Source: a virus (Duplodnaviria; Caudoviricetes). Taken from it: a stretch of DNA of 64,000 nt. The notes under the pieces are model-generated. The model searched no databases and had not been told where the DNA came from. It saw only the letters and a program-made list of their open reading frames with translations. Below, piece by piece: positions 31,387 through 53,325 of the stretch (its first letter is position 1; each line of letters starts with the position of its first letter). The stretch lies in IMG/VR virus record IMGVR_UViG_3300034062_005626; one strand, 5' to 3'. A program made the translations under genes and the position numbers.

Positions 31387-31679
31387 TGGCAGTTCAATCA
31401 GATAAATTAGATTTTTCGCAACCTGACAACACGTTGTCAAAAATTGCCGAAGAACAAAGAAGAAAAATGTTTGCTCGTAATGATTTCAAGGAAGTTAATC
31501 CCTATTCAAGTGTTAATCCCGCAGCATTAGCAGATGGTGATGGTAAAGGTAGAGGTACTGGTGGTGATTTAGATATATACAATCAAAATGCAGGAACAGC
31601 ACTTGATAGATTTGAAAGAAAAGACGATTTGAAAAGTAATAAATTTTCAGAAAAAAATCCTTATTACGTTCCACAATGA
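31386..31679 (+). CDS. Hypothetical protein
   Basis: 97-aa ORF, coupled starts and stops. Confidence 0.5.
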   Translation: MAVQSDKLDFSQPDNTLSKIAEEQRRKMFARNDFKEVNPYSSVNPAALADGDGKGRGTGGDLDIYNQNAGTALDRFERKDDLKSNKFSEKNPYYVPQ

Positions 31680-32065: not shown

Positions 32066-32078
32066 AAAATAAAAAAAT

Positions 32079-32737: not shown

Positions 32738-32768
32738 AATCCACCTATTTTAGGTGGATTTTTTATTT
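32738..32768 (+). terminator. Intrinsic terminator
   Basis: AATCCACCTA-TTT-TAGGTGGATT followed by a T run. Confidence 0.8.
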
Positions 32769-32805: not shown

Positions 32806-33753
32806 ATGGGGAAAAAAATTCAATTAGACGAAGAAGAAGTAGTCAAACAATATCTTAATGGTAAAAGTAGTTCAATTGTTGCGACAGAATTTAAAGTCTC
32901 CAAACCAAAAATACTCAGTATTTTAAAAAAACACAACGTAATAAGAAAAAAAGACAGATGTAAAAGTTTGAATTATAAATTAATCAACGAGTATTACGTT
33001 GTTGAAAGAATTTGCCCAACATGTAAGGAAATAATTCAAACTAAGTCAAAAAATAAAATTATTGCGTGTAGAAATCACTTTGTTAAAATTGACAAAAATT
33101 GTGATTGTAAAAATTGTTCATTAAAAAAACAAATAGGTAAAGGAAATCCGTTTTACGGAAAAAAACACGATGAAAAAACAAAAAATAAAATTTCAAAAAG
33201 TAGAAAGGGGAAGGCAAAAGGTTTTGAAAATGGAATGTCAAATCCTGACAATAAAAAAAGAGCTCACGATAATTTAAAACAAAAGTGGAATAATGGTGAA
33301 ATGGAACATGTTAGAAAAATGTTTTCAGAAACTATGAAAAATACTAGAAGGATGGGAAAAATAAAATCAATTAATAGGTCTAAAAAAGAGAAAGAAATAT
33401 TGGAAGAAATAAAAAATATGGGTTACCAAGTAAAACATTCATTAAAAATTGACACAAAAATATGTGACATATATATACCTAAATTAAATTTAATTATTGA
33501 ATATAATGGAGATTATTGGCATTGTAACCCAAAAAAATACGACGCAAGTTATTATCACCAAGTAAAGAAAAAAACCGCACAAGAATTATGGGAATATGAT
33601 AATAATAAAATTGACTTAATAAAAAGTAATGGTTATTTTTTTGAAGTGGTGTGGGAGTCTGAATTGAAATCAAACCCACAAATAATAAATAACTTAATAA
33701 AAAAACATGAATCAAGAGAGCAATCCAACTCCAGACGTTCGCAAAAAAATTAG
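32806..33753 (+). mobile_element. Free-standing homing endonuclease (HTH, Cys cluster, NUMOD3, DUF559/Vsr-like nuclease)
   Basis: NUMOD3-like GKGNPFYGKKHDEKTKNKISKSRKG; C-terminal CDIYIPKLNLIIEYNGDYWH...VVWESE; has its own TATTTAT motif at 32793. Confidence 0.75.
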
Positions 33754-34967
33754 GGTTCTATGCGTCCCTAGCGACCGTACTGGAGTTGGCTGAATTTAAA
33801 GGAAAATTTAGGTCTGTAGACCCCCACGTAATGTTACAAAATAATCACTCAGATGAATTTCACGTAGATATAGATTACGACCCAAAAATTAATGATTATA
33901 ACTATTGGAAACAATATGACATTGTCCATTTCCATAGGTCAATTGGTCAAGATTTTGACCAAGCGAATAAGTTAATTCAAACATTAAATTCTATTGGTGT
34001 AATTACAATTATGGATTTGGACGACTATTGGTTGCCAACTAAAGAACACCCAATCCATCAACTAATCATACAGAATAAAATAAATGAAAAGATAGTTGCA
34101 AACCTAAAAGTGGCCGCACACGTCACAACAACAACATCTTTATTTGCATCAGAAATATCTAAAATTAATAAAAACGTATACGTTCTTCCAAACGCAATTA
34201 ATCCAAAAGAACCTCAATTCAATCATGAAACAAAACCTTCAGATAAACTTCGTTTTGGATGGTTGGGTGGTTCTTCTCACTTACATGATTTAAAATTATT
34301 AAACGGTGTAACAAATAAATTAAAAGATAGTCATGACAAATTTTCATTGTATCTATGTGGTTTCGATACAAGAGGAAGTGTTACTGAAATTAATAAAGAA
34401 ACGGGGGAACAAAAACAAAGGCCGATAAGGCCAGAAGAAACCGTATGGGCACGTTATGAAGAAATTTTTACTGACAATTATAAGTTAGTTTCTCCCCAAC
34501 ATCTTGAATACCTGAAAAAATTTGAGGATTCTGAATATATTATGGAGTCTGAACCTTTTTACAATCGAGTTTGGACAAAACCTGTTACAAGTTACGCTTC
34601 AAATTATAGATTATTTGATGTTTCATTATCACCGATTGTGAATCATATTTTTAACCGAGTTAAGTCACAATTAAAAGTTATTGAAGCAGGTTTTTATAAA
34701 AAAGCAATTATCGCTTCAAATGTTGGACCATATACCATTGATTTAAAACATGCATTAAAAAATGGTCAGTTCTCTGACGGAAACGCACTTTTAGTTGATG
34801 AAGTAAAAAATCATAGTGATTGGGCTAAAAACATGAAAAAATTAATTGATAATCCTAACTTTGCTTATGACTTGGGACAACGATTGTATGAAACGGTGAA
34901 AGACACATATGATTTGAATATGGTCACAAAAAATAGAGCGGAACTTTATAAATCTTTAATAAAATGA
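33707..34967 (+). CDS. GT-B (GT4-like) glycosyltransferase interrupted by a 13-nt insert (segments 33707-33790 and 33804-34967)
   Basis: ATG at 33707 gives MNQESNPTPDVRKKIRVLCVPSDRTGVG-stop; the +1 frame continues KFRSVDPH...MDLDDYW...RFGWLGGSSH...KSQLKVIEAG. Confidence 0.75.
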
Positions 34968-35692
34968 TAAACATACCTATTAACAAAATTTTATTTATCG
35001 ACATTGAAACTGTTGGTATATGTAAGGATTGGCGGACTTGTCAAGAAAATCACCCAAAAATTGCTGAACAATTTGTTAAATACTTTGATTGGTTTTTAAA
35101 GAGATTTCCTGAAGATGATGTTGAGACAAATGGTCTTGAAGAAGAACTTCAAAAAATGAATGATGTTTATTCTTCAAGAGCGGCACTTGTTCCGGAGTTT
35201 GCTAAAATTGTTTGCGTATCAATGGCATTTGTTTTAGAAAACGGTGAAGTAAAAAAACAAACTTTTAAAAATGACAGCGAAGAGGATTTATTGTTGGAAG
35301 TTAGAAATTTATTAGACCGTTGTCACAAATTAGATTTTTATTTGTGTGGTCATAATTTAAAAAACTTTGACATCCCTATGTTGGCAAAACGTATGATTAT
35401 TAACAATATTATGCCATCAAAAATACTCCCGTCATACGACACTAAACCGTGGGAAGTAAAAGCAATTGACACAAAAGAAATTTGGCAATACGGTTCGTAT
35501 AGTTCAATTGGTTCTTTAGATTTAATGTGTTCTTGTTTAGATATTCCAACACCAAAAGATGGTGAAATAAATGGGGGTATGGTTCATCAGGCATATTGGA
35601 ATCAGAACAGACTTGATGAAATTGCAAAATATTGCGAAAAAGACGTTGATGTTTTGATTGAATCAATAAAAAAATTAAAAAGTTTAAAATAA
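34964..35692 (+). CDS. Stand-alone 3'-5' exonuclease (PolB exonuclease-like, DEDD)
   Basis: LFIDIETV, LVPEFAKIVCVS, GHNLKNFDIP, YCEKDV. Confidence 0.8.
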   Translation: MINIPINKILFIDIETVGICKDWRTCQENHPKIAEQFVKYFDWFLKRFPEDDVETNGLEEELQKMNDVYSSRAALVPEFAKIVCVSMAFVLENGEVKKQTFKNDSEEDLLLEVRNLLDRCHKLDFYLCGHNLKNFDIPMLAKRMIINNIMPSKILPSYDTKPWEVKAIDTKEIWQYGSYSSIGSLDLMCSCLDIPTPKDGEINGGMVHQAYWNQNRLDEIAKYCEKDVDVLIESIKKLKSLK

Positions 35693-36294
35693 TGTTTGAA
35701 AATATAAAAGATTTAAAAAATAGCATGAAAGCTTTAAAAGAGCTTCAATCTCAGTTTGGTAATGTTGACATGACAAACCCTGAAAGTATGTTGAAATCCA
35801 TGGGACTTAATGTTGATGAAATCAATCAACATTTTGAAGGTCAATTTACATCAGAAGTTAATTTAAATTTTGTAAATAATAGTGAAAATCAAAATCCTGA
35901 ATACGCATATAAAGGTGATTCGGGATTTGATTTAAGAGCTTCGGAAGAAAAATGGATTTTTCCAAACTCAAGAGTTTTAATACCTACAGGTTTAAAATTT
36001 GACATTCCTGATGGTTATGAAATACAAGTAAGGTCTAAAAGTGGATTAGCCTTAAATCAAGGATTATTTGTTTTAAATTCACCTGGCACGGTTGATAGTG
36101 GATACTTAGGTGAAATACAAGTTATTTTATTTAACACAACAACAGAAAAAGTTAAAATAGAAAAGGGTCAAAAAATTGCACAAGCGGTTCTTTGTCCTGT
36201 TGTTAATGGCAAATGGGTTAATTTAACGCAAATTTCAAATTTAGGCTCAAAAGACCGAAATGATAATGGATTTGGTTCAACAGGTTTAGTATGA
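35692..36294 (+). CDS. dut: dUTPase with N-terminal extension
   Basis: Motifs SGFDL, RSKSGLA, NSPGTVDSGYLGEI, AQAVL, RNDNGFGSTG. Confidence 0.92.
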   Translation: MFENIKDLKNSMKALKELQSQFGNVDMTNPESMLKSMGLNVDEINQHFEGQFTSEVNLNFVNNSENQNPEYAYKGDSGFDLRASEEKWIFPNSRVLIPTGLKFDIPDGYEIQVRSKSGLALNQGLFVLNSPGTVDSGYLGEIQVILFNTTTEKVKIEKGQKIAQAVLCPVVNGKWVNLTQISNLGSKDRNDNGFGSTGLV

Positions 36295-37931
36295 TTACAG
36301 TAGGATTTTCAACAAGAAAAATAGATGACAATTTTGTCTCGATGTTAAAAAAAACATCAGGAGTAAGTAAATTGGAAATAATACCAATCGAAAACAATGG
36401 TGTATATTCTCTTAGTGAAGCTTACAATAAAATTTTAAATGACTCCACTAATGACATTGTTGTATTGATGCATGACGACATTTATTTTGACAGTAAAAAT
36501 TGGGCGTCAAAAGTTTTAAATTATTTTAAAAGAAATTCTGACTACGGCATTCTTGGAGTTGCAGGTTCAACATCATTACCTTCTTCTGGTAAATGGTGGG
36601 AAGATTTTTCAAAACTTAAAGGAATTGTTAATCATGAACATGAAGGAAAAAAATGGGAGTCAAAATATTCACCAAGCAAAGGTAATCAGTTAGATGACGT
36701 ATTGTTAGTAGATGGGTTATTTATAGCAATTAATAAAAAAAATATTAAACACAACTTTAACGAAGAAGTTAAAGGGTTTCACTTTTACGATGTAGATTTT
36801 TCTTTTAGAAATTATTTAGAAGATGTTAAAATAGGTGTTATGTATGATGTTAGAGTCACACATAAATCGATTGGTATGACTAATGAACAATGGGAAAAAA
36901 ATAGAGAGGAATTTGCAGAAAAATATAAAGATGTTTTACCCGTTAAAATAAAAAGAAATCTTACAATCGATTCACCTTTAAAGGTATTATTATCTTGTTT
37001 ATTTTTTAAAACTTTTACAGGTTCAGAAATGTATGTTTATGAATTAGCAAGAGGATTAAAAAAATTAAATTGTGATGTTACGGTACTATCAGATATTAAT
37101 GGGCCTTTATCTCAATTAGCAAAACAACAAGGAATCAAAGTTGTTTCATTTCAAGATGCTCCTGGTTACAAAATGGGAGATGGAAAGTGGGGATTTAATA
37201 CACCACAAGGGTTTCAACCGACACAACCAAATGTAATGTATAAAATTGGTGATGTTAATTATGATATTATACATACCCAACATACTCCAGTTTCAAATCA
37301 AATGTGTCAGATGTATCCAAACATCGATAAAATATCAACAATACATTCTGAAGTCATAGAATTAGAAAATCCAATTATTAACGATTCAATTAAAAAATAT
37401 ATTTGCATTCGTCCTGAGATACAAAACCATATTGTCGAAAAATTTAATATTGATAAAAATAATACTGAAGTAATTTATAATCCAATCGACACAAAAAGAT
37501 TCAATTCAAACAATATTAAAGATGATAATTATGTTTTGTTTGTTGGTACAATTGATTATTTAAGAGAAAATACAATAAGAGATTTAGTAACATACTCCTC
37601 TGAAATTAATAAAGAATTATGGTTAGTTGGTGAAAACAAATCAAATTACTTGGATGATTTATTAAAAAATCCACACGTAAAACATTTTAACTCAACAAGT
37701 AAAGTTGAACAGTATGTTAAAAACTGTTCTGAAACTGCGGGTATTCTTTTGGGAAGAACGACTATTGAAGGTTGGATGTGTAATAAATCTGGGTGGATTT
37801 ACAATGTTGAAAGTAGTGGTTATATTTTAGATAAAAAATTACATACCCCGCCGACAGATGTTAGTAAATTCGACTCAATTGAAGTGGCAAAAAAAATAAA
37901 AGAAGAATATATTAAAGTTTTAAATGATTAA
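36291..37931 (+). CDS. Bifunctional glycosyltransferase (GT2-like N-terminal and GT4-like C-terminal)
   Basis: SLSEAYNKIL...VLMHDDIYF...GFHFYDVDF (GT-A); FTGSEMYVYELARGL...IYNPID (GT-B). Confidence 0.75.
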   Translation: MITVGFSTRKIDDNFVSMLKKTSGVSKLEIIPIENNGVYSLSEAYNKILNDSTNDIVVLMHDDIYFDSKNWASKVLNYFKRNSDYGILGVAGSTSLPSSGKWWEDFSKLKGIVNHEHEGKKWESKYSPSKGNQLDDVLLVDGLFIAINKKNIKHNFNEEVKGFHFYDVDFSFRNYLEDVKIGVMYDVRVTHKSIGMTNEQWEKNREEFAEKYKDVLPVKIKRNLTIDSPLKVLLSCLFFKTFTGSEMYVYELARGLKKLNCDVTVLSDINGPLSQLAKQQGIKVVSFQDAPGYKMGDGKWGFNTPQGFQPTQPNVMYKIGDVNYDIIHTQHTPVSNQMCQMYPNIDKISTIHSEVIELENPIINDSIKKYICIRPEIQNHIVEKFNIDKNNTEVIYNPIDTKRFNSNNIKDDNYVLFVGTIDYLRENTIRDLVTYSSEINKELWLVGENKSNYLDDLLKNPHVKHFNSTSKVEQYVKNCSETAGILLGRTTIEGWMCNKSGWIYNVESSGYILDKKLHTPPTDVSKFDSIEVAKKIKEEYIKVLND

Positions 37932-38661
37932 AGTTGTAAGTTGTTTTTGGAATGTTGAAAACTACATTGAAAAATGTATTAATTCGGTTAAATCTCAAAC
38001 TTATCGGGACTTTAAAATGTATTTAATTGATGATATGTCTAATGACAATACAAATCAAATCATAGAAAAATTAATAGAGGGTGATGAAAGATTTGTTCAT
38101 ATCAAAAACACTGAAAAAAAGTTCAAATTAAAAAATTTAGATGACTTATTGATGGATGAATCATTAATTGATGATGAAGATATTATTGTTGAGTTGGATG
38201 GTGATGATTGGTTTTATAATGAATTAGTTTTACAAAAAGTTTTTGATAGATATTCTAAAAACAAAAATCTTTGGATTACTAACGGTAGTTTTATATATTC
38301 TGATGGAAGAATGGGGTTTTCGGCAAAGGTGAATCCTAACACAATAAGACGTGACTTATTTGTTTTTTCCCATTTAAGAACTTGGAAAGCCCATTTATGG
38401 AGAAGCATAGATGAAGAAATGTTTTTAGATGAAAATAAAAATTATTTTAAATCAGGTGCCGACGTTGCGTACTCATTTCCTATGGTTGAAATGTCAGGTG
38501 AAAGTCATTATGAATTTATACCCGACATACTATTAGTTTATAATGAAGAAAACCCATATAATGACCACAAACAAGGTAGTGCTAGTGGTTCTAATCTTGA
38601 ACAGATAAAAGTATCAAACATGGTTAGAAATAAACAAAAATTAAATAAGTTAGTTAAATGA
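37924..38661 (+). CDS. GT2-family glycosyltransferase
   Basis: YIEKCINSVKSQT...IDDMSND...ELDGDDW. Confidence 0.85.
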   Translation: MIKVVSCFWNVENYIEKCINSVKSQTYRDFKMYLIDDMSNDNTNQIIEKLIEGDERFVHIKNTEKKFKLKNLDDLLMDESLIDDEDIIVELDGDDWFYNELVLQKVFDRYSKNKNLWITNGSFIYSDGRMGFSAKVNPNTIRRDLFVFSHLRTWKAHLWRSIDEEMFLDENKNYFKSGADVAYSFPMVEMSGESHYEFIPDILLVYNEENPYNDHKQGSASGSNLEQIKVSNMVRNKQKLNKLVK

Positions 38662-39470
38662 ATAATTTAATCTCGTGTAATTTAATGGGTGGTTTAGGTA
38701 ATCAATTATTTCAAGCGGCTCACGCATTGGCACAAGGAATAAAACACAATAGAGAAGTAGTTTTTGTACCTAAATCATGGACACCAATGCAAGGTAGACA
38801 AACTTCAAACTATATTAATAACGTTTTTAGAAATTTAAAATTTGTTGAGTCTATTGATGGATTTGAAAAAGTCGTTGAAGGTCCTTGGGAATATTCTGAA
38901 GTAAATCCAAAAACTAATAGTACAGTCTTTGAAGGGTATTTCCAAAGTAGTAAAAACTTTTTGGGGTATGATGAACAAATTAGAAATATTTTTTTTCCGA
39001 CTGAAGACTTTATAAATAATATGTATGATAAATATCCGCAATTAAAACAAGATAATACTTTATCCATACACACACGTAGGGGGGATTGTTTTTTTAATTT
39101 AGATATTCACCCTATTGCAAACGAAAAATATATTGAAAAATCGTTAAATGTTGTTGGGGAATACAAACATGTTTTTATTTTTGGAGATGATAAAGAATGG
39201 GTAAAAAATAACATTAAATTAAAAAATTCTACGTTTATCGAAAACCTTGAGGATTATGAAGAAATGTGGTTAATGTCTCTTTGTAATCACAACATAATAG
39301 TAAACTCAACTTTTTCTTGGTGGTCATCGTTTTTAAATAAAAACCCAAATAAAAAAATATTAGCACCTTCAATTTGGTTTGGTCCAAGAGGTCCTAAAAA
39401 TTACAAAGACATATACGAAGATTATTGGAAAATTATTGATGTGTCTTATAAAAATGGTTTTTTAGAATAA
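38658..39470 (+). CDS. GT11 alpha-1,2-fucosyltransferase-like
   Basis: GGLGNQLFQ, GYFQS, SIHTRRGD, LMSLCNHNIIVNSTFSWWSSFL. Confidence 0.85.
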   Translation: MNNLISCNLMGGLGNQLFQAAHALAQGIKHNREVVFVPKSWTPMQGRQTSNYINNVFRNLKFVESIDGFEKVVEGPWEYSEVNPKTNSTVFEGYFQSSKNFLGYDEQIRNIFFPTEDFINNMYDKYPQLKQDNTLSIHTRRGDCFFNLDIHPIANEKYIEKSLNVVGEYKHVFIFGDDKEWVKNNIKLKNSTFIENLEDYEEMWLMSLCNHNIIVNSTFSWWSSFLNKNPNKKILAPSIWFGPRGPKNYKDIYEDYWKIIDVSYKNGFLE

Positions 39471-39473
39471 CAT

Positions 39474-40235
39474 ATGGAATACTATTACACAAGATATGAC
39501 GGTAATGACGAAGAAGGTTTAGGTTCAATTTTACAGTCACAACTTCACTTATATGCGTATTGTAGGGTCAATAATAAGAAAATGTTTTTCCCTGGTTTAC
39601 AGAACATATCACATTACCAATATGTTGGAGAAGAAAAAGAAATTTTTAATAAAAAACTAAATGATTTTTTTAATATCCCATCAGAAGGGGAAGTTGGGAC
39701 AAACTATATTGAACCATCATATCTATTAAAAAATTGGGGTGAGTCTGAAAATTCTATAAAACAAAAATATATTCCTGAGTTATTTGAAAAAATAAAATAC
39801 ACAGGAATAAATTATTTTGATAAAAATAAAAAAACTTTATCCGTACATATAAGGAATATTAATCCTCAAGATGTTTGTTTTGATTATAACAGGGAATATT
39901 ATTCAGAAAATAAAAAAAATTATTTTATAAATTTAATTACAAACATACATAAGATTCACGGAAAAAATTTAGATGTTCATATTTTTTCTCAAGGTAAAGA
40001 TGAAGATTTTGAAATATTTGAAAAAAAATTTAATGCAAAAACACATTTGAATGGTGATATAGTAACAACATTATATCATTTAATTACAAGTGAAATATTA
40101 GTAACTTCGAATAGTTCTTTTAGTTGGGTTTCTCATCTTTATGGTCAAAATAAATATGTCTATTCACGTAACAATTTTTTTCATTCTTGGTACTCATCAA
40201 CTTTTTTAGTTGACAATTATGGTAATATAATTTAA
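39474..40235 (+). CDS. Fucosyltransferase-like GT-B protein
   Basis: EGLGSILQ, SVHIRN, HIFSQG, LVTSNSSFSW resemble fucosyltransferase motifs I-III. Confidence 0.55.
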   Translation: MEYYYTRYDGNDEEGLGSILQSQLHLYAYCRVNNKKMFFPGLQNISHYQYVGEEKEIFNKKLNDFFNIPSEGEVGTNYIEPSYLLKNWGESENSIKQKYIPELFEKIKYTGINYFDKNKKTLSVHIRNINPQDVCFDYNREYYSENKKNYFINLITNIHKIHGKNLDVHIFSQGKDEDFEIFEKKFNAKTHLNGDIVTTLYHLITSEILVTSNSSFSWVSHLYGQNKYVYSRNNFFHSWYSSTFLVDNYGNII

Positions 40236-40244
40236 GTTTATAAC

Positions 40245-41324
40245 ATGAAAAATAATATATCAATTATAGGTGTCGGTAAATTAGGTTTATGTTTATCGTT
40301 AAATTTAGAAAGAAAAGGATTTAATATAGTAGGGGTTGACGTTTCTGAGTCATATGTTAGTTCATTAAATAATAAAAGTTTTAAAAGTACAGAACCATAC
40401 GTTAATGAATTTTTACAAAGTTCAAAAAATATTTTTTTTACAACTTCTCTTGAATTAGCATTAAAAAATGATGTAATATTTGTTGTAGTAAAAACCCCAT
40501 CAACACCAGAATGGAAATACGACCACACCCAAATAGATAATATAGTTGATGAGTTAATTAAAATCGGAAAACAAAATACCCGTAAAGATTTAATTATAAA
40601 TTCAACAACTTTTCCAGGATACTGTGACACAATCCAAAAAAGATTGTCAGATTTAAATTATTTTGTGTCTTATAATCCAGAATTTATTGCTCAAGGTAGT
40701 ATTATTATGGACCAATTAAATTGTGATAGTGTGTTAATAGGTGAGTCAGACAAAACGGCAGGAGATACAATTGAACACATATATAAAGTAATGTGTGATT
40801 CTAACCCAATAATAAATCGCATGTCAAGAACAGAATCTGAATTAACAAAATTGTCAGTTAACTGTTTTCTCACAACTAAAATAAGTTTTGCAAACATGAT
40901 AGGTGACATATCTGAAAGGATGAATTGTAATCCTAATGTTATTTTGAATGCCGTTGGTTCAGATAGTAGAATTGGAAATAAATACCTTAAACCTGGATTT
41001 GGTTTTGGAGGACCTTGTTTCCCGAGAGATAATCGCGCATTATCTAAATGTGCAGAAGAAGTTGGTATTGACGCAGTAATTTCAAAATCTACGGACATAA
41101 TGAATGAAAAACATTTAGAATATCAAATTCAAAATTTTGTTAAAAACAATCCCGATATGACTAAAAAAGTTGTAATACCATACGTTACATATAAAAAAGA
41201 AAGTACCTTAATTGAAGAGTCCCAACAACTTAAATTTGCTTTAAGTTTAAAAAATATGGGATATAATGTTGTAGTATCTGACGACAGAGAAGAAGTAATC
41301 GAACAAATAAAAAATATATTATAA
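40245..41324 (+). CDS. ugd: UDP-glucose/GDP-mannose 6-dehydrogenase family
   Basis: GVGKLG Rossmann motif, STTFPG, YNPEFIAQG, SELTKLSVN, catalytic GFGGPCFPRD. Confidence 0.8.
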   Translation: MKNNISIIGVGKLGLCLSLNLERKGFNIVGVDVSESYVSSLNNKSFKSTEPYVNEFLQSSKNIFFTTSLELALKNDVIFVVVKTPSTPEWKYDHTQIDNIVDELIKIGKQNTRKDLIINSTTFPGYCDTIQKRLSDLNYFVSYNPEFIAQGSIIMDQLNCDSVLIGESDKTAGDTIEHIYKVMCDSNPIINRMSRTESELTKLSVNCFLTTKISFANMIGDISERMNCNPNVILNAVGSDSRIGNKYLKPGFGFGGPCFPRDNRALSKCAEEVGIDAVISKSTDIMNEKHLEYQIQNFVKNNPDMTKKVVIPYVTYKKESTLIEESQQLKFALSLKNMGYNVVVSDDREEVIEQIKNIL

Positions 41325-41325
41325 T

Positions 41326-41988: not shown

Positions 41989-41989
41989 T

Positions 41990-44531: not shown

Positions 44532-45244
44532 ATACATCACAAAAAGAATTGATAAGAGGTAAAGAAGTCCTTTTAGATAATAGAAGTTTTGAATATGGGG
44601 GTTCTTGGGGTAAAGATGGTACTAACGACCCTCTTTTTCTTGAAGAGTGTATGAAAATTATTGAAGAAAAAAATCATAAAGTAATTTTTGATATTGGTTC
44701 TAATACTGGCCAATTTATTTTTTTTTACCTTTTTAAATCCGATATTGAAACGTATTGTTTTGAACCATTAAAACCTGTATACGACACACTAAATAGTAAT
44801 ATTTTGTTAAATGATATAAAAAATGCCAACACATATAACTTCGCTTTGTGTAATGAGGATGGTGAAAGTTATATTTACAGGCCAGAAAATATGATTGCTT
44901 GTGGTATGTCTACCATGGGAGAAAAAGCATTAAGATTTAAAAACGAATTTGGGGTTGTAAAAGAAAAAATACAATGTAAAAAATTAGATACTTTTGTATT
45001 GGAAAAAAAATTAAAAAAAATTGACTTTATAAAAATAGATACAGAAGGATTTGAATATTTTGTTTTACTTGGTGGTTTTAATACTTTACAAAAACACAAA
45101 CCAGACTTAGTAATTGAGTATCAAAAACTTAACATGTCTCAGTGTGGTGTTGAAGAAGATAAACTTAAAACCCTATTAGAAAGTATTGGGTATAATTATT
45201 TTAAATTTTTAAGCGGAGAAGATTTATATTGTAGTTATGTATAA
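44528..45244 (+). CDS. FkbM-family methyltransferase
   Basis: IFDIGSNTG, YCFEP, LDTF, FIKIDTEGFE. Confidence 0.85.
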   Translation: MNTSQKELIRGKEVLLDNRSFEYGGSWGKDGTNDPLFLEECMKIIEEKNHKVIFDIGSNTGQFIFFYLFKSDIETYCFEPLKPVYDTLNSNILLNDIKNANTYNFALCNEDGESYIYRPENMIACGMSTMGEKALRFKNEFGVVKEKIQCKKLDTFVLEKKLKKIDFIKIDTEGFEYFVLLGGFNTLQKHKPDLVIEYQKLNMSQCGVEEDKLKTLLESIGYNYFKFLSGEDLYCSYV

Positions 45245-46142
45245 TTTAATTATTTCAAATGCGGCGGGAACTTTCAGTACAATATTGAAGTACATTTCTT
45301 GGATGTGCGTACAAGAAAAAAATAGAGATACAATAAACTTATTTTTTGATTTTAGAAATAAAACAAAGGTTTCAGGTAACACTTTATTAAATTATGGTAC
45401 TTCAGATTTAAATTTAATTAATTTTTCACAAACAAGTGAAAACATTTTTGATATGTTTTTTAATATTAAAAATGTTGGTTTATACCCATATAACTCTAAA
45501 TATGTTGAGCAATACCCTTATGAAATTAAAAACATTATAAAAAATTATCCAGAACATTTAATTAAATATGAGGGTAGGGGTTGTGATGTAAAACAATATT
45601 TTGACGATTCAGAAATTAAAAAAATTAGGTCTGAATTTAATAAACAGTGGGAAAGGTTAGATTTATCACCAAACTTAAAAAAAAGAATCAATGTAGAAGT
45701 CGACCCATTTTTTAGAAATAATCATAGAATTTTATGTGCTATGATTAGGTATTCAGACCATTATGTTGGTGATTTTTCGTATGAAAAAATTTTTGAAGAG
45801 ATTGATGATAAAATGAAAAATTTTGATAAATTATTGTTAATAACACAATTATTACCTGTTGTGGAAATTCTTAAAGAAAAATATGGAAATAATTTAATTT
45901 ATTTTGAGAATAGACATAGAGTTAATGATTATAAAACTGATTGGGATGGGGGTAGGAATATAAGTATGAGTGATGAATCATTTATACGTGAAACCGAAGA
46001 TTGTATAATAGATGTCATAGCGGCTAGTAAAAGCCATTTTGTTTTAGGAGGTGCTAGTAATATGTTTTTAGGAGCACTTTCTATTAATAAAGATTTAAAT
46101 TATAAAATTTTCGACGTATTAATAAACAATATAGGTAGATAA
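45237..46142 (+). CDS. Putative O-fucosyltransferase/NodZ-like GT-B protein
   Basis: AGTFSTIL, AMIRYSD, IIDVIAASKSHFVLGGASN; cluster context. Confidence 0.45.
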   Translation: MYNLIISNAAGTFSTILKYISWMCVQEKNRDTINLFFDFRNKTKVSGNTLLNYGTSDLNLINFSQTSENIFDMFFNIKNVGLYPYNSKYVEQYPYEIKNIIKNYPEHLIKYEGRGCDVKQYFDDSEIKKIRSEFNKQWERLDLSPNLKKRINVEVDPFFRNNHRILCAMIRYSDHYVGDFSYEKIFEEIDDKMKNFDKLLLITQLLPVVEILKEKYGNNLIYFENRHRVNDYKTDWDGGRNISMSDESFIRETEDCIIDVIAASKSHFVLGGASNMFLGALSINKDLNYKIFDVLINNIGR

Positions 46143-46146
46143 AAAA

Positions 46147-47154
46147 ATGAAAAAAATTGTAGTTTTAGGTGGCGGTGGATTCATAGGTGGACATTTAGCC
46201 AAAAGTTTAAAAGAAAAAGGTAATCATGTTAGAATATGTGATATAAAAAAACACGAATATTTCAAACACGAAGAAATATGTAATGAATTTGTTTTAGGTG
46301 ACTTAAGAGACCCTAACGTTGTCCAATTAGTTATTGAAGAAGGAGTTGATGAAGTTTATCAATTGGCTGCAGATATGGGTGGTGCGGGATATATTTTTAC
46401 AGGAGAAAATGATGCGAATGTTATGCATAATTCGGCATTAATTAATTTAAATGTAGTTCATGAGTGTGTTAAAAAACAAGTTAAAAAAGTTTTTTATTCT
46501 TCTTCAGCTTGTATGTACCCCGAACACAACCAATTAGACCCATTAAACCCAAATTGCGAAGAATCTTCAGCGTATCCCGCAAATCCAGATTCCGAATATG
46601 GGTGGGAAAAATTATTTAGTGAGAGGTTATATTTAGCATTCAATAGAAACTATGGGTTAGATGTTAGAATCGCCAGATTTCACAATATTTTCGGTCCTTT
46701 TGGTACGTGGGTTGGGGGTAAAGAAAAGGCTCCCGCGGCTATGTGTAGAAAGGCCTGTGAATCAAAAAATGGTGACCAAATTGAGGTATGGGGTGACGGT
46801 CAACAAACACGTTCATTTCTTTACATTGATGAGTGTTTAGAGGCGGTTTTTAAACTTATGGAAAGTAATTTTACAAACCCGGTTAATATTGGTTCTGAAG
46901 AAAAAGTTACAATAAATGAATTAGCACAAATGGCAATTAACATCTCAGGTAAGGATATAAAAATTAAAAATATTTTTGGTGATGAATTTATTAAAAAATA
47001 TGGATTCAAATGTCCTATAGGTGTTAGAGGTAGGACATCCGACAACAGTCTTTATGAAAAAACCGTTGGGTGGAAGGTTTCTAAACCACTTAAAGATGGT
47101 TTAGAAAAAACCTTACACTGGATTGATAATCAAATCAAAATTAAAAATGTATAA
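46147..47154 (+). CDS. GDP-mannose 3',5'-epimerase-like extended SDR
   Basis: GGGGFIG, QLAADMGG, YSSSACMYP, YGWEK, RFHNIFGPFGTWVGGKEKAPAAMCRK closely follow GME-family motifs. Confidence 0.75.
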   Translation: MKKIVVLGGGGFIGGHLAKSLKEKGNHVRICDIKKHEYFKHEEICNEFVLGDLRDPNVVQLVIEEGVDEVYQLAADMGGAGYIFTGENDANVMHNSALINLNVVHECVKKQVKKVFYSSSACMYPEHNQLDPLNPNCEESSAYPANPDSEYGWEKLFSERLYLAFNRNYGLDVRIARFHNIFGPFGTWVGGKEKAPAAMCRKACESKNGDQIEVWGDGQQTRSFLYIDECLEAVFKLMESNFTNPVNIGSEEKVTINELAQMAINISGKDIKIKNIFGDEFIKKYGFKCPIGVRGRTSDNSLYEKTVGWKVSKPLKDGLEKTLHWIDNQIKIKNV

Positions 47155-48130
47155 AAAAAAAGTTTTAATAACAGGTATAAATGGTCAAGATGGTTCATAT
47201 TTGACTGAATTTTTATTAGATAAAAGTTATGAAGTGTGGGGGATGGTAAAAAGAAATTCAGTACCAGAAACACAATCATCAAGAATTGAACACTTGAGGG
47301 AAAATAAAATTATAAATTTGGAGTACGGTGATTTAACAGATATGGCTTCTTTGGTAAATATTATTCAAAAAGTCCAACCTGACGAAATTTATAACTTAGC
47401 CGCTCAATCACATGTTCGAGTTAGTTTTGACCAACCAATATACACAACAAACACAACTGGTTTAGGGACTTTAAATTTATTAGAAGCGGTCAGAATGGTG
47501 TCACCACATTCAAAAATTTATCAAGCATCATCTTCTGAAATGTTTGGTAATATGGTAGACGAAGACGGGTTCCAAAGAGAAACGACCCCTATGAACCCCG
47601 TTTCACCTTATGGTTGTGCAAAAGTATTTTCTTATAATATATGTAGAAATTATAGAAATTCATATAACATGAAAATATGGAACGGCATACTTTTTAATCA
47701 CGAATCACCAAGACGAGGAACTAATTTTGTAACTAATAAAGTGGTAAAGGGTGCCGTAAGAATTAAACTTGGTTTACAAAATAAATTAAGTTTAGGTAAT
47801 TTACAAGCCAGTAGAGATTGGGGGCATGCTAAAGATTATGTAAGGGCTATGTGGTTAATGCTACAAACAGAAACACCAGACGATTATGTATGCGCCACAG
47901 GAGTATCACATTCTGTAAAAGACTTGTGCGAATACACTTTTTCAAAACTTAATTTAAATTACAAAGATTATGTTGTGGTAGATGAGAAAAATTTTAGACC
48001 GGAAGAATTACATAATTTAAAAGGAGATTCATCCAAAATGAAGTCAAAAATAAATTGGGAACCTGAATACACATTCGAGTCAATGTTAGATGAAATGATT
48101 CAATACTGGTTAAATTATTATGATAAGTAA
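47147..48130 (+). CDS. gmd: GDP-mannose 4,6-dehydratase
   Basis: Likely start at 47147; LITGINGQDGSYL, YNLAAQSHVRVSF, YQASSSE, SPYGCAK, LFNHESPRRG..FVT.K, RDWGHAKDY. Confidence 0.95.
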   Translation: MYKKKVLITGINGQDGSYLTEFLLDKSYEVWGMVKRNSVPETQSSRIEHLRENKIINLEYGDLTDMASLVNIIQKVQPDEIYNLAAQSHVRVSFDQPIYTTNTTGLGTLNLLEAVRMVSPHSKIYQASSSEMFGNMVDEDGFQRETTPMNPVSPYGCAKVFSYNICRNYRNSYNMKIWNGILFNHESPRRGTNFVTNKVVKGAVRIKLGLQNKLSLGNLQASRDWGHAKDYVRAMWLMLQTETPDDYVCATGVSHSVKDLCEYTFSKLNLNYKDYVVVDEKNFRPEELHNLKGDSSKMKSKINWEPEYTFESMLDEMIQYWLNYYDK

Positions 48131-49031
48131 GATATTAGTTACAGGTGGTAATGGTTTAGTGGGTTCTGAGTTTGTTGGTGAAAAATATTATAAGCCAACG
48201 TCCAAAGAATATAATCTCAAAAATACGGATGACGCGAATCGTTTAATGTTGAAAAGGTTTGAAAGTGTAATTCACACCGCAGGTAGAGTGGGAGGATTGG
48301 GTAGTAATATAAATCACAAGGGAGAATTTTTTTATGAAAATATTATGATAAATACAAATGTGATTGAATCGGCAAGAATTAGTGGTGTTAAAAATTTAGT
48401 ATCTTTTTTGTCAACATGTATTTTTCCTGATAGTACGGAATACCCATTAACTGAAAAAAAAATACACATGGGTCCACCTCATTTTTCAAATGACGCTTAC
48501 GCTTACGCAAAACGTATGGTTGATGTCCAAATACGTGCATATAAAGAACAATACGGTTTAAATTATAAATCAGTTATACCTACTAATATTTATGGCCCAA
48601 ACGATAATTATGACATCAAAAATGGTCACGTAATTCCTTCACTAATTCATAAATGTTATTTAGCAAGAGAACATAAAACACCACTAACTATTTGGGGTAG
48701 TGGGAATCCACTAAGAGAGTTTATTTTTAGTAGAGATGTTGCTAAATTAACCGAGTGGGTTCTTTTTAACTATGACGAAAACGAACCAATAATACTTTCT
48801 ACCTCGGACGAGATTTCAATAAAAGAAGTTGTGGGTATAATAGTTGAAATTATGAATTTTAAAGGTGAAGTTAAGTTTGATACAACAAAACCTGACGGAC
48901 AATATAGAAAACCTTCAGACAACTCCAAAATTAAAAGTTATTTACCTGACTTTAATTTTACAAACCTTTTTGATGGATTAAAAGAAACTATTGAATATTT
49001 TGAAAAATACTATAATGTTGTAAGAAAATAA
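48120..49031 (+). CDS. fcl: GDP-L-fucose synthase
   Basis: GGNGLVGS, AGRVGG, STCIFP, YAYAK, PTNIYGPND, HVIPSLI, WGSGNPLREF, KPDGQYRK. Confidence 0.92.
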   Translation: MISKILVTGGNGLVGSEFVGEKYYKPTSKEYNLKNTDDANRLMLKRFESVIHTAGRVGGLGSNINHKGEFFYENIMINTNVIESARISGVKNLVSFLSTCIFPDSTEYPLTEKKIHMGPPHFSNDAYAYAKRMVDVQIRAYKEQYGLNYKSVIPTNIYGPNDNYDIKNGHVIPSLIHKCYLAREHKTPLTIWGSGNPLREFIFSRDVAKLTEWVLFNYDENEPIILSTSDEISIKEVVGIIVEIMNFKGEVKFDTTKPDGQYRKPSDNSKIKSYLPDFNFTNLFDGLKETIEYFEKYYNVVRK

Positions 49032-49035
49032 TCAA

Positions 49036-49770
49036 ATGACAAGAAAAAAAATAACAACAGAAGAACCTGTAATTCCACAAACATTTTCAAAAAAAGATTT
49101 CATAAATGCAACAATCAAAAGAAAACAAAAAAGTAAATTTTTATCTGACAACCAAAAAGACTACTACGATATTTTATTAAGTAATCAAATTACAATCTGT
49201 TCAGGACCTGCGGGTGTTGGTAAAAGTTACATTTCTATGAAAGCAGCTGTCGATTTATTAATTGACCCATCGAACTCATATGAAAAAATAATTATTGTAA
49301 GACCTGCAGTTGAGGCTGAAGAAAAATTGGGTTCCTTACCCGGTAATTTAGAAGAGAAATTAGACCCTTATATTTTTCCATCTTATTATTTATTAAATAA
49401 AATTATTGGTAAGGATGCCAGAGAAAAACTAAAAGAGTCGGAAATAATTGAAGTTTTTGCTTTAGCATATATGAGAGGTATGAATATTGATAATTCTATT
49501 TTAATATTTGAGGAAGCTCAAAACGCAACTCCAAATCAAATTAAATTACTATTGACAAGAATCGGTTTTAATAGTAAATTTTTCATATCTGGTGACTTGG
49601 AGCAAACTGACAGATATAAGGATAAAAAACAATCAGGACTATACGACGCCCTTCAAAGATTTCAAAATGTAAACGATATTGGAATTTATGATTTTAGAAA
49701 TGCAAAAAACGTAAGAAACCCATTAATTGGTAAAATTTTAGAAAGATACGATGAAGAAAATAGGAATTGA
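49036..49770 (+). CDS. phoH: PhoH-family ATPase
   Basis: GPAGVGKS, RPAVEAEEKLGSLPG, YMRG, EEAQN, GDLEQTD. Confidence 0.92.
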   Translation: MTRKKITTEEPVIPQTFSKKDFINATIKRKQKSKFLSDNQKDYYDILLSNQITICSGPAGVGKSYISMKAAVDLLIDPSNSYEKIIIVRPAVEAEEKLGSLPGNLEEKLDPYIFPSYYLLNKIIGKDAREKLKESEIIEVFALAYMRGMNIDNSILIFEEAQNATPNQIKLLLTRIGFNSKFFISGDLEQTDRYKDKKQSGLYDALQRFQNVNDIGIYDFRNAKNVRNPLIGKILERYDEENRN

Positions 49771-50398
49771 AGTTAATGGCGTGTTAAGAAATACCTTGGG
49801 TAAAATTCAACAAACTTATGAAAAGTTTTTGATTGAAAACAACTCAACAGAAAAAACTTATATTTTGGATGAGTCAGGTAATACTGAATCAATTATACAG
49901 GAAGAAGAGTTTGAATACGAGGTGTTAGGTAATATTGACAGCCTTAATTTATTAAACCATTTTAAGTTTAAGTCTGATGATGAACTTTATGAGTTTTTAT
50001 ATCAAGAATTTGCGATGCAAATATTTGGTCATGCTGAATCTTCAGAGATGCACACATTTCATACCTTAAATGACATTTATTTAAAATATCGAAGTACAAA
50101 TGATATTGTAATTATATCTGATGAAATTGGTAAATCTAAACCGGCCACATTATTTTTTTTATCAAAGTTTGGTTGTCAAATTGAAAAAATTAAATTTTAT
50201 TCAGACACCACTAAAAACTCAATTTGGGATGAGGTTGATGTTTTAGTTAGTGCAAATCCAAGTTTAATTGAAGACCATCCAGAAAACAAAGTTGTTATAA
50301 AGTTCAATACTCAGTATAACAAAACAAATAAATCTGAACACGAAATCAGTTCACTTAAAGAATTAGATGAATGTTTACAAAAATTAGGAATATGTTAG
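49751..50398 (+). CDS. 5'-nucleotidase-like HAD-fold protein with degenerate motif I
   Basis: IGIEVNGVLRN in place of the canonical D-x-D-G-V; overall size and layout resemble phage deoxyribonucleotidases. Confidence 0.45.
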   Translation: MKKIGIEVNGVLRNTLGKIQQTYEKFLIENNSTEKTYILDESGNTESIIQEEEFEYEVLGNIDSLNLLNHFKFKSDDELYEFLYQEFAMQIFGHAESSEMHTFHTLNDIYLKYRSTNDIVIISDEIGKSKPATLFFLSKFGCQIEKIKFYSDTTKNSIWDEVDVLVSANPSLIEDHPENKVVIKFNTQYNKTNKSEHEISSLKELDECLQKLGIC

Positions 50399-50676
50399 AA
50401 TTTTTAGGTGAAAGATATTATATCGACGTACAGGAGATAGAAAATAAAATTGCAATTGCCAACCCCACTTTAGAATCAACTGAAGTTGATGGTCAAATTG
50501 AACCACACATAAGTGTTTCAAAATGGGAAGTATATAAAAATTTAGTAGATGTTATATTATCCGAAAGAGAAGAGCTTGATGAAAATTTAGGTATACATAG
50601 TGCCAAAAATTTATCAATCCCTTTTAAATTCGCATTCAATACTTTACTAATAAACAACATAATAAAAAAGTTATAA
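50392..50676 (+). CDS. Hypothetical protein
   Basis: Likely start MLEFLGERYYID at 50392. Confidence 0.5.
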   Translation: MLEFLGERYYIDVQEIENKIAIANPTLESTEVDGQIEPHISVSKWEVYKNLVDVILSEREELDENLGIHSAKNLSIPFKFAFNTLLINNIIKKL

Positions 50677-50680
50677 TAAA

Positions 50681-51745
50681 ATGGAATTAGACAAAATTAA
50701 AAAAATTGAAACGTCAGTTGAAAAACTTGGAAATAAAACCGCAAGAATTTATTTTTTAGTTCAAGACACAAAAGGAAACCCAAAGGCGGGTGTTTCTTAC
50801 ATTTATCAAATGGCAATGTCCTTGTTGAAAAAAGGATTTAACGTAAAAATGATTCACGAAACAAATGATTACCAAGGAGTTGGTGATTGGTTAGGTAAAG
50901 AATATATGGAAATTGAACATATCGCAATTGAAGGTCAGAATCTTCCTATTTCACCTGAAGATTTTGTTGTTATTCCTGAATTGTACGCGCACGTTATGGA
51001 GCAACTTAAAAATTATCCATGTGGTAAATTGGTGTTGTGTCAAGCATATGATTACATGTTAGAAACTTTACCTCCAGGTATTTCATGGGCTAATTATGGA
51101 TTTTTAAAAAGTATTAGTACTTCTGAATTTCAAAAAGAATATATCAAATCAGTTTTTAAAAATGTAAGTGTTGACGTTGTTGAACCTCTTATCTCTGAAG
51201 TATTCAGTAAAAAAGACAAACCATCAAAGCCAATTGTTTCTATTCACTGTAGAGAACCAAGAGACACTGCAAAAATTATCAAAAGTTTCTATTTGAAATA
51301 TCCTCAGTATCGTTGGTTTACTTTTAGAGACATGAAAAACATTAGTCAAACAGACTTTTCAAAGTTTTTAAAAGAATCTTTTGTTTCGGTTTGGGTTGAT
51401 AGAGAGTCTGGATTTGGTACATTCCCAATCGAAAGTATGATTTCAAACACTCCAGTAATTGGTGTGGTTCCTAATTTAAAACCTGATTGGATGAATGAAA
51501 ATAACGGTATTTGGACATATTCTTTTAACGAAATTATAGACGTTTTAGCAAATTTTGCACAAAATTGGTTAGAAGACAACATCAACGAAGAGTTGTATAC
51601 TAAAATGTCTGAAACAGGTGAAAAATATCAAAATAAAGAATTATTTGATAATAAAATTGAATCTTTGTTTGTTGATTATTTCAACGTAAGAAAAGAAATG
51701 TTTAGTCAACAATTAGAAAAATTAAAAATAACTGAAGAAAAATAA
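50681..51745 (+). CDS. GT-B glycosyltransferase
   Basis: AGVSYIYQMA, VVIPELY, ESGFGTFPIESM...PVIG (EX7E-like). Confidence 0.75.
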   Translation: MELDKIKKIETSVEKLGNKTARIYFLVQDTKGNPKAGVSYIYQMAMSLLKKGFNVKMIHETNDYQGVGDWLGKEYMEIEHIAIEGQNLPISPEDFVVIPELYAHVMEQLKNYPCGKLVLCQAYDYMLETLPPGISWANYGFLKSISTSEFQKEYIKSVFKNVSVDVVEPLISEVFSKKDKPSKPIVSIHCREPRDTAKIIKSFYLKYPQYRWFTFRDMKNISQTDFSKFLKESFVSVWVDRESGFGTFPIESMISNTPVIGVVPNLKPDWMNENNGIWTYSFNEIIDVLANFAQNWLEDNINEELYTKMSETGEKYQNKELFDNKIESLFVDYFNVRKEMFSQQLEKLKITEEK

Positions 51746-51749
51746 TATT

Positions 51750-52562
51750 ATGGAAAACTTAGAAAAATTAGATGTATCGGTAATTCTACCAATTGATTCG
51801 GCAAATAATATCATGTTCGAAGATTTATTCAACAGAGCAATTACATCGATTCAAACACAAACCAAACCTATTAATGAATTAGTAATTGTTCATTCAGGTG
51901 AAGAGTTATTAAAAAATAAATTAGATAATTACGACTTTAGTGGTCTAACAGTTACTATGGTAGAAAATCAAAATGAATTTGATTTTTGTTCTCAAGTAAA
52001 TATTGGTGTAAAACATGCCAAAAGTACTTGGATTTCTATTTTAGAATTTGATGATGAATATTCTACAATTTGGTTTAAAAATTTTGATAGATATAGTAAA
52101 TCATATTCTGAAGTTGATGCATTTTTACCTATTGTTGTTGATACTGACGAAAAAGGAGTTTTTGTTGGGTTTACTAATGAAGCCACATTCGCAGTAAGTA
52201 TGAACTCAGAAATTGGTTACTTAAATAATGATACACTTTTAAATTATCAAAATTTTCAATCAAGTGGAATTGTTATTAAAAAGTCAGTTTATGAAGAAAA
52301 CGGCGGGCTTAAATCAAGTATGAAATTAACTTTTGTATATGAGTTCTTATTAAGATTAACTTACAATTCTGTTAAAATTATGACAATTCCAAGAATTGGT
52401 TATAAACACATGAATTTAAGACCAGGTTCTATATTTTGGAATTATAAAAATGGGGAAAGTAAGATTACAGATGATGAGGTTTCTTTTTGGATTGAATCAG
52501 CAAAAAAAGAACATTTTTTTACAACTGATAGGAACATAAAATACGAACCACAAAATGTATAA
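51750..52562 (+). CDS. GT2-family glycosyltransferase
   Basis: VSVILP, SIQTQT, VNIGVKHAKSTWISILEFDD, YEFLLRL. Confidence 0.75.
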   Translation: MENLEKLDVSVILPIDSANNIMFEDLFNRAITSIQTQTKPINELVIVHSGEELLKNKLDNYDFSGLTVTMVENQNEFDFCSQVNIGVKHAKSTWISILEFDDEYSTIWFKNFDRYSKSYSEVDAFLPIVVDTDEKGVFVGFTNEATFAVSMNSEIGYLNNDTLLNYQNFQSSGIVIKKSVYEENGGLKSSMKLTFVYEFLLRLTYNSVKIMTIPRIGYKHMNLRPGSIFWNYKNGESKITDDEVSFWIESAKKEHFFTTDRNIKYEPQNV

Positions 52563-53305: not shown

Positions 53306-53325
53306 AATTTATCTATTTATTGAGT

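Follow-up and report, generated by a model that had tools for sequence, protein, structure and literature searches.

A 64,000 nt stretch of DNA from the IMG/VR record IMGVR_UViG_3300034062_005626 (hereafter the window) contains, at 33707-52562, a block of glycosyltransferase (GT), sugar-nucleotide and methyltransferase genes that very probably constitutes a glycan-building cassette. A tail sheath gene (14715-17918, minus strand; phrog_23, E 4e-53), a family B DNA polymerase (PolB), a helicase, and a weak gp55-like sigma factor confirm that the window is phage DNA, and the phage is a large, uncultured freshwater virus whose island, described below, is matched in lake and other freshwater metagenomes. 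Twenty-four co-oriented open reading frames (ORFs) run from 33786 to 53700 on the plus strand, as do all genes described below unless stated otherwise, with intergenic gaps of -52 to +14 nt. This agrees with the initial annotation, made from the sequence alone, which had described co-oriented and tightly coupled genes. That annotation also treated 33707-52562 as one glycan system. Its gene list was right, but it omitted an exonuclease, a dUTPase, NadE, PhoH, and three ORFs of no recognised family, and the block is not a single unit: it comprises a conserved backbone and a variable island. The G+C content of the window is approximately 30%, and that of the island is 26-28%, below its surroundings.

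Three parts can be distinguished. The conserved left arm (33707-36294) carries a GT-B glycosyltransferase, the exonuclease, and the dUTPase; the variable island (36291-49031; 12.7 kb, 15 genes) lies between dUTPase and PhoH; and the conserved right arm (49036-53305) includes two further GTs. Relatives in IMG/VR comprise hundreds of contigs, among which are complete records of 317-326 kb, one with terminal repeats, and proteins related to the right-arm GT at 50681 are encoded on at least 547 viral contigs. When the entire block was compared by megablast with 50,697 phage records, no match was found. Two samples of relatives were compared, one with the GDP-mannose 3,5-epimerase (GME) of the island as query (loci L001-L080, the first 80 loci), and one with the backbone GT at 50681 as query (loci L091-L170, of which 62 have enough upstream DNA). 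The order common to the GME-sampled loci is the ORF at 32079, the GT at 33786, exonuclease, dUTPase, variable genes and GME on the left, followed on the right by PhoH, 49751, 50371, the GT at 50681, the GT2 at 51750, and the genes at 52562, 53320, 53700, 55893, and 57506. Exonuclease and dUTPase are kept in 24-30 of these 80 loci. Among the 62 backbone-sampled loci, PhoH and 50371 are present in all 62 and 49751 in 61. GME was considered as a backbone gene and rejected, as its presence in all 80 loci of the first sample is an ascertainment bias, GME being the query; with backbone sampling it is found in 16/62 loci, compared with 24/62 for Gmd and 25/62 for an Fcl homologue (at least 35% identity). 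When the slot upstream of PhoH is classified at 50% identity, it holds gmd and fcl in 16 of the 62 loci, GME only in 14, gmd only in 6, GME with gmd in 1, all three in 1, and none of the three in 24. The one backbone-sampled locus with all three is a contig nearly identical to the window.

The island is exchanged as a cassette between close relatives. Its left border is the end of the dUTPase gene (36294), and its right border lies between the stop at 49031 and the PhoH start at 49036. Locus L092 and the window share 90% DNA identity over 49022-59493, 78% over GME, and nothing upstream; the right border is thus sharp. In place of the genes described here, the L092 island encodes class I and FkbM methyltransferases, a PglD-like acetyltransferase, a DegT aminotransferase, and a Zn-dehydrogenase. 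At 30% identity, the proteins of the window's island and of 27 relatives' islands fall into 75 families, of which many have a single member; among the families are GT2, GT6, GT10, GT11, GT25, GT31, and GT92-like glycosyltransferases, FkbM and TylF proteins, and sulfotransferases, together with UDP-GlcNAc 2-epimerase, amino-sugar enzymes, and, in some relatives, HldE-like genes (PfkB kinase plus cytidylyltransferase). The proportion of shared island families is 50-73% at 99% flank protein identity and 15% at 70-80%. The start of the island is semi-conserved: the genes at 36291, 37924, and 38658 occur in the islands of 13-15 of the 27 relatives, and homologues of 39474 occur in only 5 of the 80 GME-sampled loci. 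GT10 is encoded at 11 of the relatives' loci, and GT6 (L016:8353-9189; E 4e-48), GT25, and sulfotransferases also occur; with GT11, these are the enzyme set of ABH/Lewis-like epitopes.

Where present, the island is stable. Twenty DNA runs from lake or freshwater samples, with dates from 2016 to 2024, contain at least 96% of its 31-mers; most of these runs may belong to the source campaign and are then not independent. No RNA run is among those listed as carrying the island.

The initial annotation counted about nine GT-like genes, and the count holds, with nine genes encoding ten domains. Three are backbone genes: the GT-B glycosyltransferase (33707/33786-34967; phrog_7162, E 1.8e-45), a GT4 of Agt/AmGGT type (50681-51745), the profile of which (A1) matches PDB entry 8xsg over nearly its full length (E 2.6e-15), and a GT2 (51750-52562; PF00535, 28 bits against a cut-off of 23.3). 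The remaining six are in the island. Pfam assigns a GT2_5 and GT4 fusion (36291-37931) and a GT2 (37924-38661), and the next gene (38658-39470) has both marks of the GT11 alpha-1,2-fucosyltransferase family, a score above the PF01531 gathering cut-off (75.2 bits against 23.9) and an N-terminal GGLGNQ, within MGGLGNQLFQ. Its neighbour (39474-40235) is a GT11-like paralogue that reaches the family by profile-profile comparison only (hhalign of A5 against A6, probability 95%, E 4e-8). A probable GT at 42664-43800 (probable start 42712) is a lead from the Atlas language model, to phage 'glycosyltransferase' clusters, and the protein encoded at 45237-46142 is a candidate member of the NodZ/FUT8/O-FucT-like fucosyltransferase superfamily from an Atlas feature search (score 0.97), with no Pfam, PDB, or PHROG match. 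The annotated trio of one GT11 and two more fucosyltransferase-like ORFs is therefore upheld for GT11, is reached by profile comparison for 39474, and is an Atlas lead for 45237. Sequence and profile searches of the PDB gave no usable match for 39474, 45237, the 49751 family (A3), or the 33786 family (A7).

The sugar-nucleotide genes of the GDP-mannose branch lie at the right end of the island. Gmd (GDP-mannose 4,6-dehydratase; probable start 47147, to 48130) scores 415.4 bits against the TIGR01472 equivalog cut-off of 415 and aligns to positions 1-340 of 342. The adjoining gene (48120-49031), the start of which overlaps the end of gmd, encodes an Fcl-like epimerase/reductase; NF047922 is its best family and is covered from 3 to 301 of 308, at 224 bits against a cut-off of 500. 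The annotated gmd and fcl pair thus reaches equivalog level for Gmd and falls below it for the Fcl-like protein, for which a role in GDP-L-fucose synthesis is predicted. The epimerase that had been called GME-like (46147-47154) proved to be a true GME by its full-length similarity and retained motifs: residues 3-331 align with Arabidopsis GME (2c59, E 6.6e-93), the next family, UDP-glucuronate decarboxylase, follows at E 2e-26, and the motifs SSACMYPE, YGWEKL, and GGKEKAPAAMCRK are aligned with the same motifs of 2c59. These include the catalytic Cys and Lys acid/base pair and the Tyr-x3-Lys motif known from work on GME.

Among the GME-sampled loci, a GT11-type gene is present in 41 of 80, and a Gmd homologue (at least 50% identity) lies within 10 kb in two (L001 and L010). 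Additionally, the complete genome of relative G003 encodes GME and GT11, and gmd was found nowhere in it. The occurrence of GME and GT11 without gmd means that L-galactose might take the place of fucose in some relatives; more simply, these relatives might draw on GDP-fucose from the host. Both routes, to GDP-fucose and to GDP-L-galactose, are present in the window's phage.

A nucleotide-sugar 6-dehydrogenase (40245-41324; TIGR03026, 240 bits against 190) carries the catalytic Cys in GFGGPCFPRD and passes the nucleotide-sugar dehydrogenase subfamily model. The annotation as ugd stands at this subfamily level and does not extend to UDP-glucose as the substrate: the two top equivalog models, with cut-offs of 670 and 700, are matched at 164 and 148 bits. 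The C-terminal UDP-binding domain PF03720 was undetected in this protein, which ends near position 353 of 413; the short form (359-371 amino acids) recurs in six phages. In the window, NAD synthase NadE (43791-44531; TIGR00552, 180 against 63.65) is separated from the dehydrogenase by three genes. Of the 11 relatives' loci with NadE, 10 have the two genes as neighbours, in either order. Loci with the pair include L027, L028, L049, L050, L057, L058, L062, L069, and L077. The pairing suggests that NadE supplies NAD+ to the dehydrogenase; that NadE, which passes its domain model, might instead be an enzyme that amidates uronic acids is speculation. The three methyltransferases that had been predicted were all recovered: a class I enzyme (41326-41988) with an Atlas structure match to CmcI/rhamnosyl O-methyltransferase (template modelling score 0.82), a weak FkbM match (41951, probable start 41990, to 42715), and an FkbM methyltransferase (44528-45244; TIGR01444, 87.6 against 37.7).

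From these families, a pathway can be proposed in which each chemical step is inferred from sequence. Host GDP-mannose would be converted to GDP-L-fucose by Gmd and the Fcl-like enzyme, and to GDP-L-galactose or L-gulose by GME. A nucleoside diphosphate-hexose would be oxidised to a uronic acid donor, with NadE possibly supplying NAD+. The chain would then be extended by the six island GT genes (seven domains), three of which are of fucosyltransferase-superfamily type, and O-methylated by the three S-adenosylmethionine-dependent methyltransferases. There would be two layers. The GT-B at 33707-34967, the Agt-like GT4 at 50681, and the GT2 at 51750, common to the phage family, would form the conserved layer and build the inner part of the glycan, and the island at 36291-49031, swapped as a cassette, would form the variable layer and add an outer epitope that varies, on the model of an O-antigen locus. 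The likeliest acceptor would be structural proteins of the phage, in fibres or head decoration, to which the sugars would be added during assembly or ahead of it.

No flippase, polymerase, or ligase was recognisable in the cluster, as had been reported, and no membrane-span-like hydrophobic window was found in any of the 24 cluster ORFs, the peak in the exonuclease being strand-like and buried. Together with the gene families, these absences are in line with the cytoplasmic pathway for a methylated, fucosylated glycan put forward in the initial annotation; the acceptor named there, virion proteins, is one that we infer. Transport and ligase genes elsewhere in the genome had been named as the sign of an O-antigen conversion cassette. 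A search of three complete relatives (317-326 kb) for seven families (Bac_transf, the WecA/MraY type, Wzx, Wzy_C/WaaL, ABC2_membrane, GtrA, and PMT_2) was negative, and the control genomes matched; the search covered the genomes of relatives rather than the full genome of the window's phage. The phage family thus appears, from its sequences, to bring no lipid-carrier or export machinery. A serotype-converting or O-antigen cassette of the Wzx/Wzy, ABC, or Gtr kind was rejected, as the required genes are absent from the cluster and from the three complete relatives, and a self-sufficient O-antigen conversion cassette is excluded because of that absence. GTs that act on host lipid-linked intermediates are compatible with it.

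As the acceptor, a virion protein is the best explanation, although we hold it with somewhat less than even confidence. Three features hint at a protein: the Agt/AmGGT-related GT4, GT9 genes near Ser/Thr-rich proteins, and viral precedents. AmGGT (8xsg) is the closest solved relative of the conserved GT4 at 50681 and is a homologue of the Agt enzymes; both are soluble and extend glucose chains, which in the case of Agt are carried by proteins N-glucosylated in the cytoplasm (PMC12159676). The family also encodes GT9 heptosyltransferase-like genes, one of which is a GT1/GT4 and GT9 fusion, and in G003 the GT9 genes lie beside four large proteins with 21-29% Ser plus Thr. Of a cytoplasmic N-glycosylation system of the NGT/Agt kind, the extender, an Agt-type GT4, is present, and the initiator was not found, with no match to an HMW1C-like GT41 in the records of four relatives.

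The transcriptional context is among several observations that weigh against a virion-protein acceptor. The sequence TATTTAT(A) occurs on the coding strand 5-35 nt upstream of 13 genes, mostly structural, and is probably the core of a late promoter, a variant of T4 TATAAATA; the T4 form itself is not enriched in the window (20 found, 13.8 expected), and scans for sigma-70-type promoters performed no better than on shuffled sequence. Positions with the motif include those upstream of 3601-9990, 13048-13536, 14715-17918, and 19444-19959 on the minus strand and of 21791, 22901, 30213, and 57506 on the plus strand, among others. It precedes none of the 24 cluster genes and 13 of 30 genes elsewhere (Fisher p = 1.8e-4). 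A bidirectional terminator at 32738-32760, with a perfect 10-bp stem and a T-run on both strands, separates a block of small genes (30213-32714) from the endonuclease and GT block, which it isolates from the late-type promoter upstream; downstream of it, no convincing plus-strand terminator occurs before 59696. With late motifs lacking and the upstream terminator isolating the block, the operon looks early or middle. A role in taking over the host or in modifying DNA would fit such timing no less well than decoration of the virion, although the products of early expression could still modify late proteins. Moreover, neither capsid, tail-tube, nor fibre genes border the cluster, which is packed with exonuclease, dUTPase, NadE, PhoH, and sigma factor genes; no initiating protein-GT was found, GT41/NGT being absent from the four relatives' records. 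The solubility of the enzymes does not discriminate between acceptors, as O-antigen GTs are usually soluble or peripheral too, and hypervariability fits a host-surface target equally well. Export genes, in addition, are known to be absent from relatives rather than from the window's own genome, and analogous cyanophage clusters have been published as lipopolysaccharide (LPS) or cell-wall modification genes (PMC1079782, PMC9602691).

Several of these observations bear on remodelling of the host envelope, which we regard as less likely than a virion-protein acceptor but as the likeliest of the rivals. Here, at the membrane's inner face, soluble GTs would modify undecaprenyl-linked O-antigen, capsule, or general O-glycan intermediates of the host, and host flippases and ligases would export the altered glycan; the changed cell surface could block superinfection, adsorption of progeny to debris, or grazing. 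Bacterial O-antigen and capsule loci use the same GT and tailoring families, the island resembles such loci in its cassette turnover and in a G+C content (26-28%) lower than the surroundings, and the early- or middle-looking context without late motifs agrees with it. However, with export-side genes missing from the three complete relatives, the host would have to supply all of them and accept foreign units; the phage looks lytic and T4-like, which leaves little time for surface turnover; and three GTs are conserved in more than 500 contigs whatever the cassette, which would be odd if the acceptors were diverse host glycans.

In T4, alpha- and beta-glucosyltransferases glycosylate hydroxymethylated bases and so evade restriction. 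DNA hypermodification of this kind, listed as an alternative in the initial annotation, is a very improbable role for the cluster. The phage is T4-like, an operon without late motifs fits modification during replication, and the first GT adjoins the exonuclease and dUTPase genes. The GT pair at 50681 and 51750 lies directly upstream of the gp55-like gene, an arrangement comparable with that of T4, where the alpha-gt gene neighbours gene 55. Diverse viral DNA glycans have also been reported (Pyle et al. 2024, as cited in PMC12619734). The proposal is nevertheless weakened: the complete relatives have a single ThyA-family gene that matches true thymidylate synthase (E 4e-73), and the cluster ORFs have no Pfam match to the T4 glucosyltransferase families. 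No T4 dCMP hydroxymethylase was among the best 60 PDB matches of the ThyA-family gene, which could still, as far as sequence goes, be a dUMP hydroxymethylase. The AlphaFold model of the 33786 GT family supports a generic GT-B/GT4-like fold rather than that of T4 alpha- or beta-GT, in a weak model (predicted local distance difference test score 61.6) with a poor C-terminal half. TET/JBP proteins were not matched either, but the control genomes were equally silent, which makes this weak evidence. Finally, nine GTs, fucosyltransferase types, O-methyltransferases, and the sulfotransferases of relatives exceed any known DNA glycan.

The remaining alternative, a free or secreted glycoconjugate or a rerouting of metabolism, is improbable. 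The product could be a soluble oligosaccharide or a glycosylated small molecule, or the enzymes could drain or redirect the sugar-nucleotide pools of the host, and neither phage nor host would provide a macromolecular acceptor. AmGGT uses free oligosaccharides, not glycopeptides (PMC12159676), and the block is interspersed with NadE and PhoH, which are frequently classed as auxiliary metabolic genes. Nine GTs and three methyltransferases, however, imply a defined, multi-residue product, diversification of the cassette argues for a recognised and exposed structure rather than pool management, and an exporter is absent in the relatives.

If virion proteins are the acceptor, the two layers of the locus can be read together: a freshwater jumbo T4-like phage family of more than 500 contigs would carry a two-layer 'virion serotype' locus, a proposal that we put forward tentatively. 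According to this proposal, the three invariant GTs would lay a core on fibre or head proteins, to which the cassette would add an outer epitope rich in L-fucose, L-galactose, uronic acid, and methyl-sugars. Viral precedents exist. In chloroviruses, the capsid protein is glycosylated by virus-encoded GTs, and the viruses also encode GMD, GMER (GDP-fucose synthase), and UGDH. The GTs of PBCV-1 are soluble, some are multidomain and one has a methyltransferase domain, and its fucose-containing, O-methylated glycans are built in the cytoplasm. Unlike the phage studied here, PBCV-1 is a eukaryotic virus with scattered genes, an acceptor that is the major capsid protein, and glycan structures known by experiment.

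Among tailed phages, the mycobacteriophages are the only ones known to have proven glycosylated virions, with O-glycosylation of Che8, Corndog, and Myrna (Freeman et al. 2023, as cited in PMC12619734). Phage GTs act there in the cytoplasm on phage proteins; between one and four GT genes are found close to the structural genes, their targets are the Ser/Thr-rich C-termini of capsid and tail tube, and sugar-nucleotide genes do not form part of the systems. The window's cluster is far larger and lies in a replication or early-type region, and adjacency to capsid or tail-tube genes does not hold, its neighbours being exonuclease, dUTPase, PhoH, and sigma factor genes. Bacterial O-antigen and capsule loci are similar in combining nucleotide-sugar, GT, and tailoring genes in one operon, in cassette replacement between conserved flanks, and in having a lower G+C content than their surroundings. 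They differ in that no priming transferase, Wzx, Wzy, WaaL, or ABC transporter is present in the cluster or in the complete relatives.

Such clusters are already known from large aquatic phages. The Prochlorococcus phage P-SSM2 (2005) has two 'LPS' clusters of 24 genes that P-SSM4 lacks and that were read by the authors as LPS genes by analogy with temperate phages (PMC1079782). ORF113-135 of the Synechococcus phage S-SCSM1 (MK867354.2) are annotated as 'cell wall synthesis and modification', by annotation only (PMC9602691). With these two, the window's phage shares a T4-like myovirus type and a co-oriented sugar-nucleotide, GT, and methyltransferase block, the content of which varies between relatives. 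Neither cassette borders nor conserved core GTs are described for P-SSM2, and its host and gene families are different. S-SCSM1 is closer: a cultured T4-like myovirus of more than 200 kb, it has gmd, fcl, and GME as direct neighbours in a co-oriented block, alpha-1,2-, NodZ-type, and O-FucT-type fucosyltransferases, at least five further GTs, two methyltransferases, and a Gmd 53% identical to that of the window. However, it infects a marine cyanobacterial host, in contrast to the freshwater phage studied here, has no dehydrogenase and NadE pair, and is flanked by nrd, tRNA, and hli genes; it alone has mannose-6-phosphate isomerase, asparagine synthase, a carbamoyltransferase, 2-oxoglutarate oxygenases, and a wcaG RNA motif. 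In the window, an Rfam search at gathering thresholds and a tRNA scan found nothing, including no wcaG-type RNA. Among the papers searched, none pairs 'jumbo phage' with fucosyltransferase.

The remaining genes of the block are those of the backbone. A PolB-exo-like 3'-5' exonuclease (34964-35692; PF10108, E 2.7e-12) and a true dUTPase (35692-36294; 143.6 against a cut-off of 103), neither of them related to glycans, follow the first GT, and PhoH (49036-49770; PF02562, E 4e-62) opens the right arm, followed by two ORFs of no recognised family (49751-50398 and 50371-50676). PHROGs matched none of nine unassigned ORFs. The conserved 215-amino-acid protein encoded at 49751-50398 begins with M(R/K)IGIExNGVLR, which resembles the DxDGVL of HAD/NT5C-type nucleotidases with both Asp residues replaced, and matches neither a family nor a PDB entry. 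The block closes with a gene (52562-53305; 247 amino acids) that probably encodes a gp55-like late sigma factor. This call is weak (Sigma70_r2, E 0.02; top PDB match T4 gp55, 7d7c_F, E 0.05), and the protein is conserved at 64-82% in approximately 54 of the 80 GME-sampled loci. Further downstream, the N-terminus of the protein encoded at 55893-57482 contains VDNQDPLMLGRI, which is reminiscent of the OB domain of the gp5/VgrG baseplate hub; the protein has no Pfam or PHROGs match.

The first GT gene (33707-34967) is split in the window by a 13-nt insert, TGAATTTAAAGGA, at 33791-33803, which starts with a stop codon and shifts the frame; the ORF of the GT body begins at TTG 33786. Orthologues in relatives are intact, approximately 403 amino acids long, and read PSDRTGVGKFRSVDPH at this site. 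Contig G001, which is 98% identical, carries the same insert, as do lake contigs from 2016, 2020, and 2024, with no differences; the insert is therefore fixed in this population and not a sequencing error. A contig from run X20 (2022) joins 32764 straight to 33801, a junction that omits both the gene for a NUMOD3/Vsr-like homing endonuclease (32806-33753) and the GT split site. An endonuclease-less variant thus exists in nature, and it suggests that the endonuclease and the 13-nt insert travel together.

Relative to the published clusters, the locus adds a precise anatomy in two layers, a cassette swap found in nature between phages with 90% identical flanks, the rare combination of GME, gmd, and an Fcl-like gene, and the tight dehydrogenase and NadE pairing. 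The firmest of the additions are the sharply bounded cassette swap and the recovery of the island in lake DNA runs from 2016-2024. Phage GME, the short nucleotide-sugar dehydrogenases, and the fucosyltransferase-type GTs are candidates for making rare L-sugar glycans. What the glycan clusters of lytic aquatic phages target has been a question since P-SSM2 in 2005, and the locus sharpens it, with exact borders, three family-wide GTs, and natural pairs of phages that are approximately 90% identical outside the island and carry different cassettes. If virions are decorated, the phages would have exchangeable glycan serotypes, which would matter for adsorption, for grazing and host defence, and for how stable the particles are in lakes. 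If instead the host is remodelled, the result would be large-scale rewriting of cell surfaces by lytic phages.

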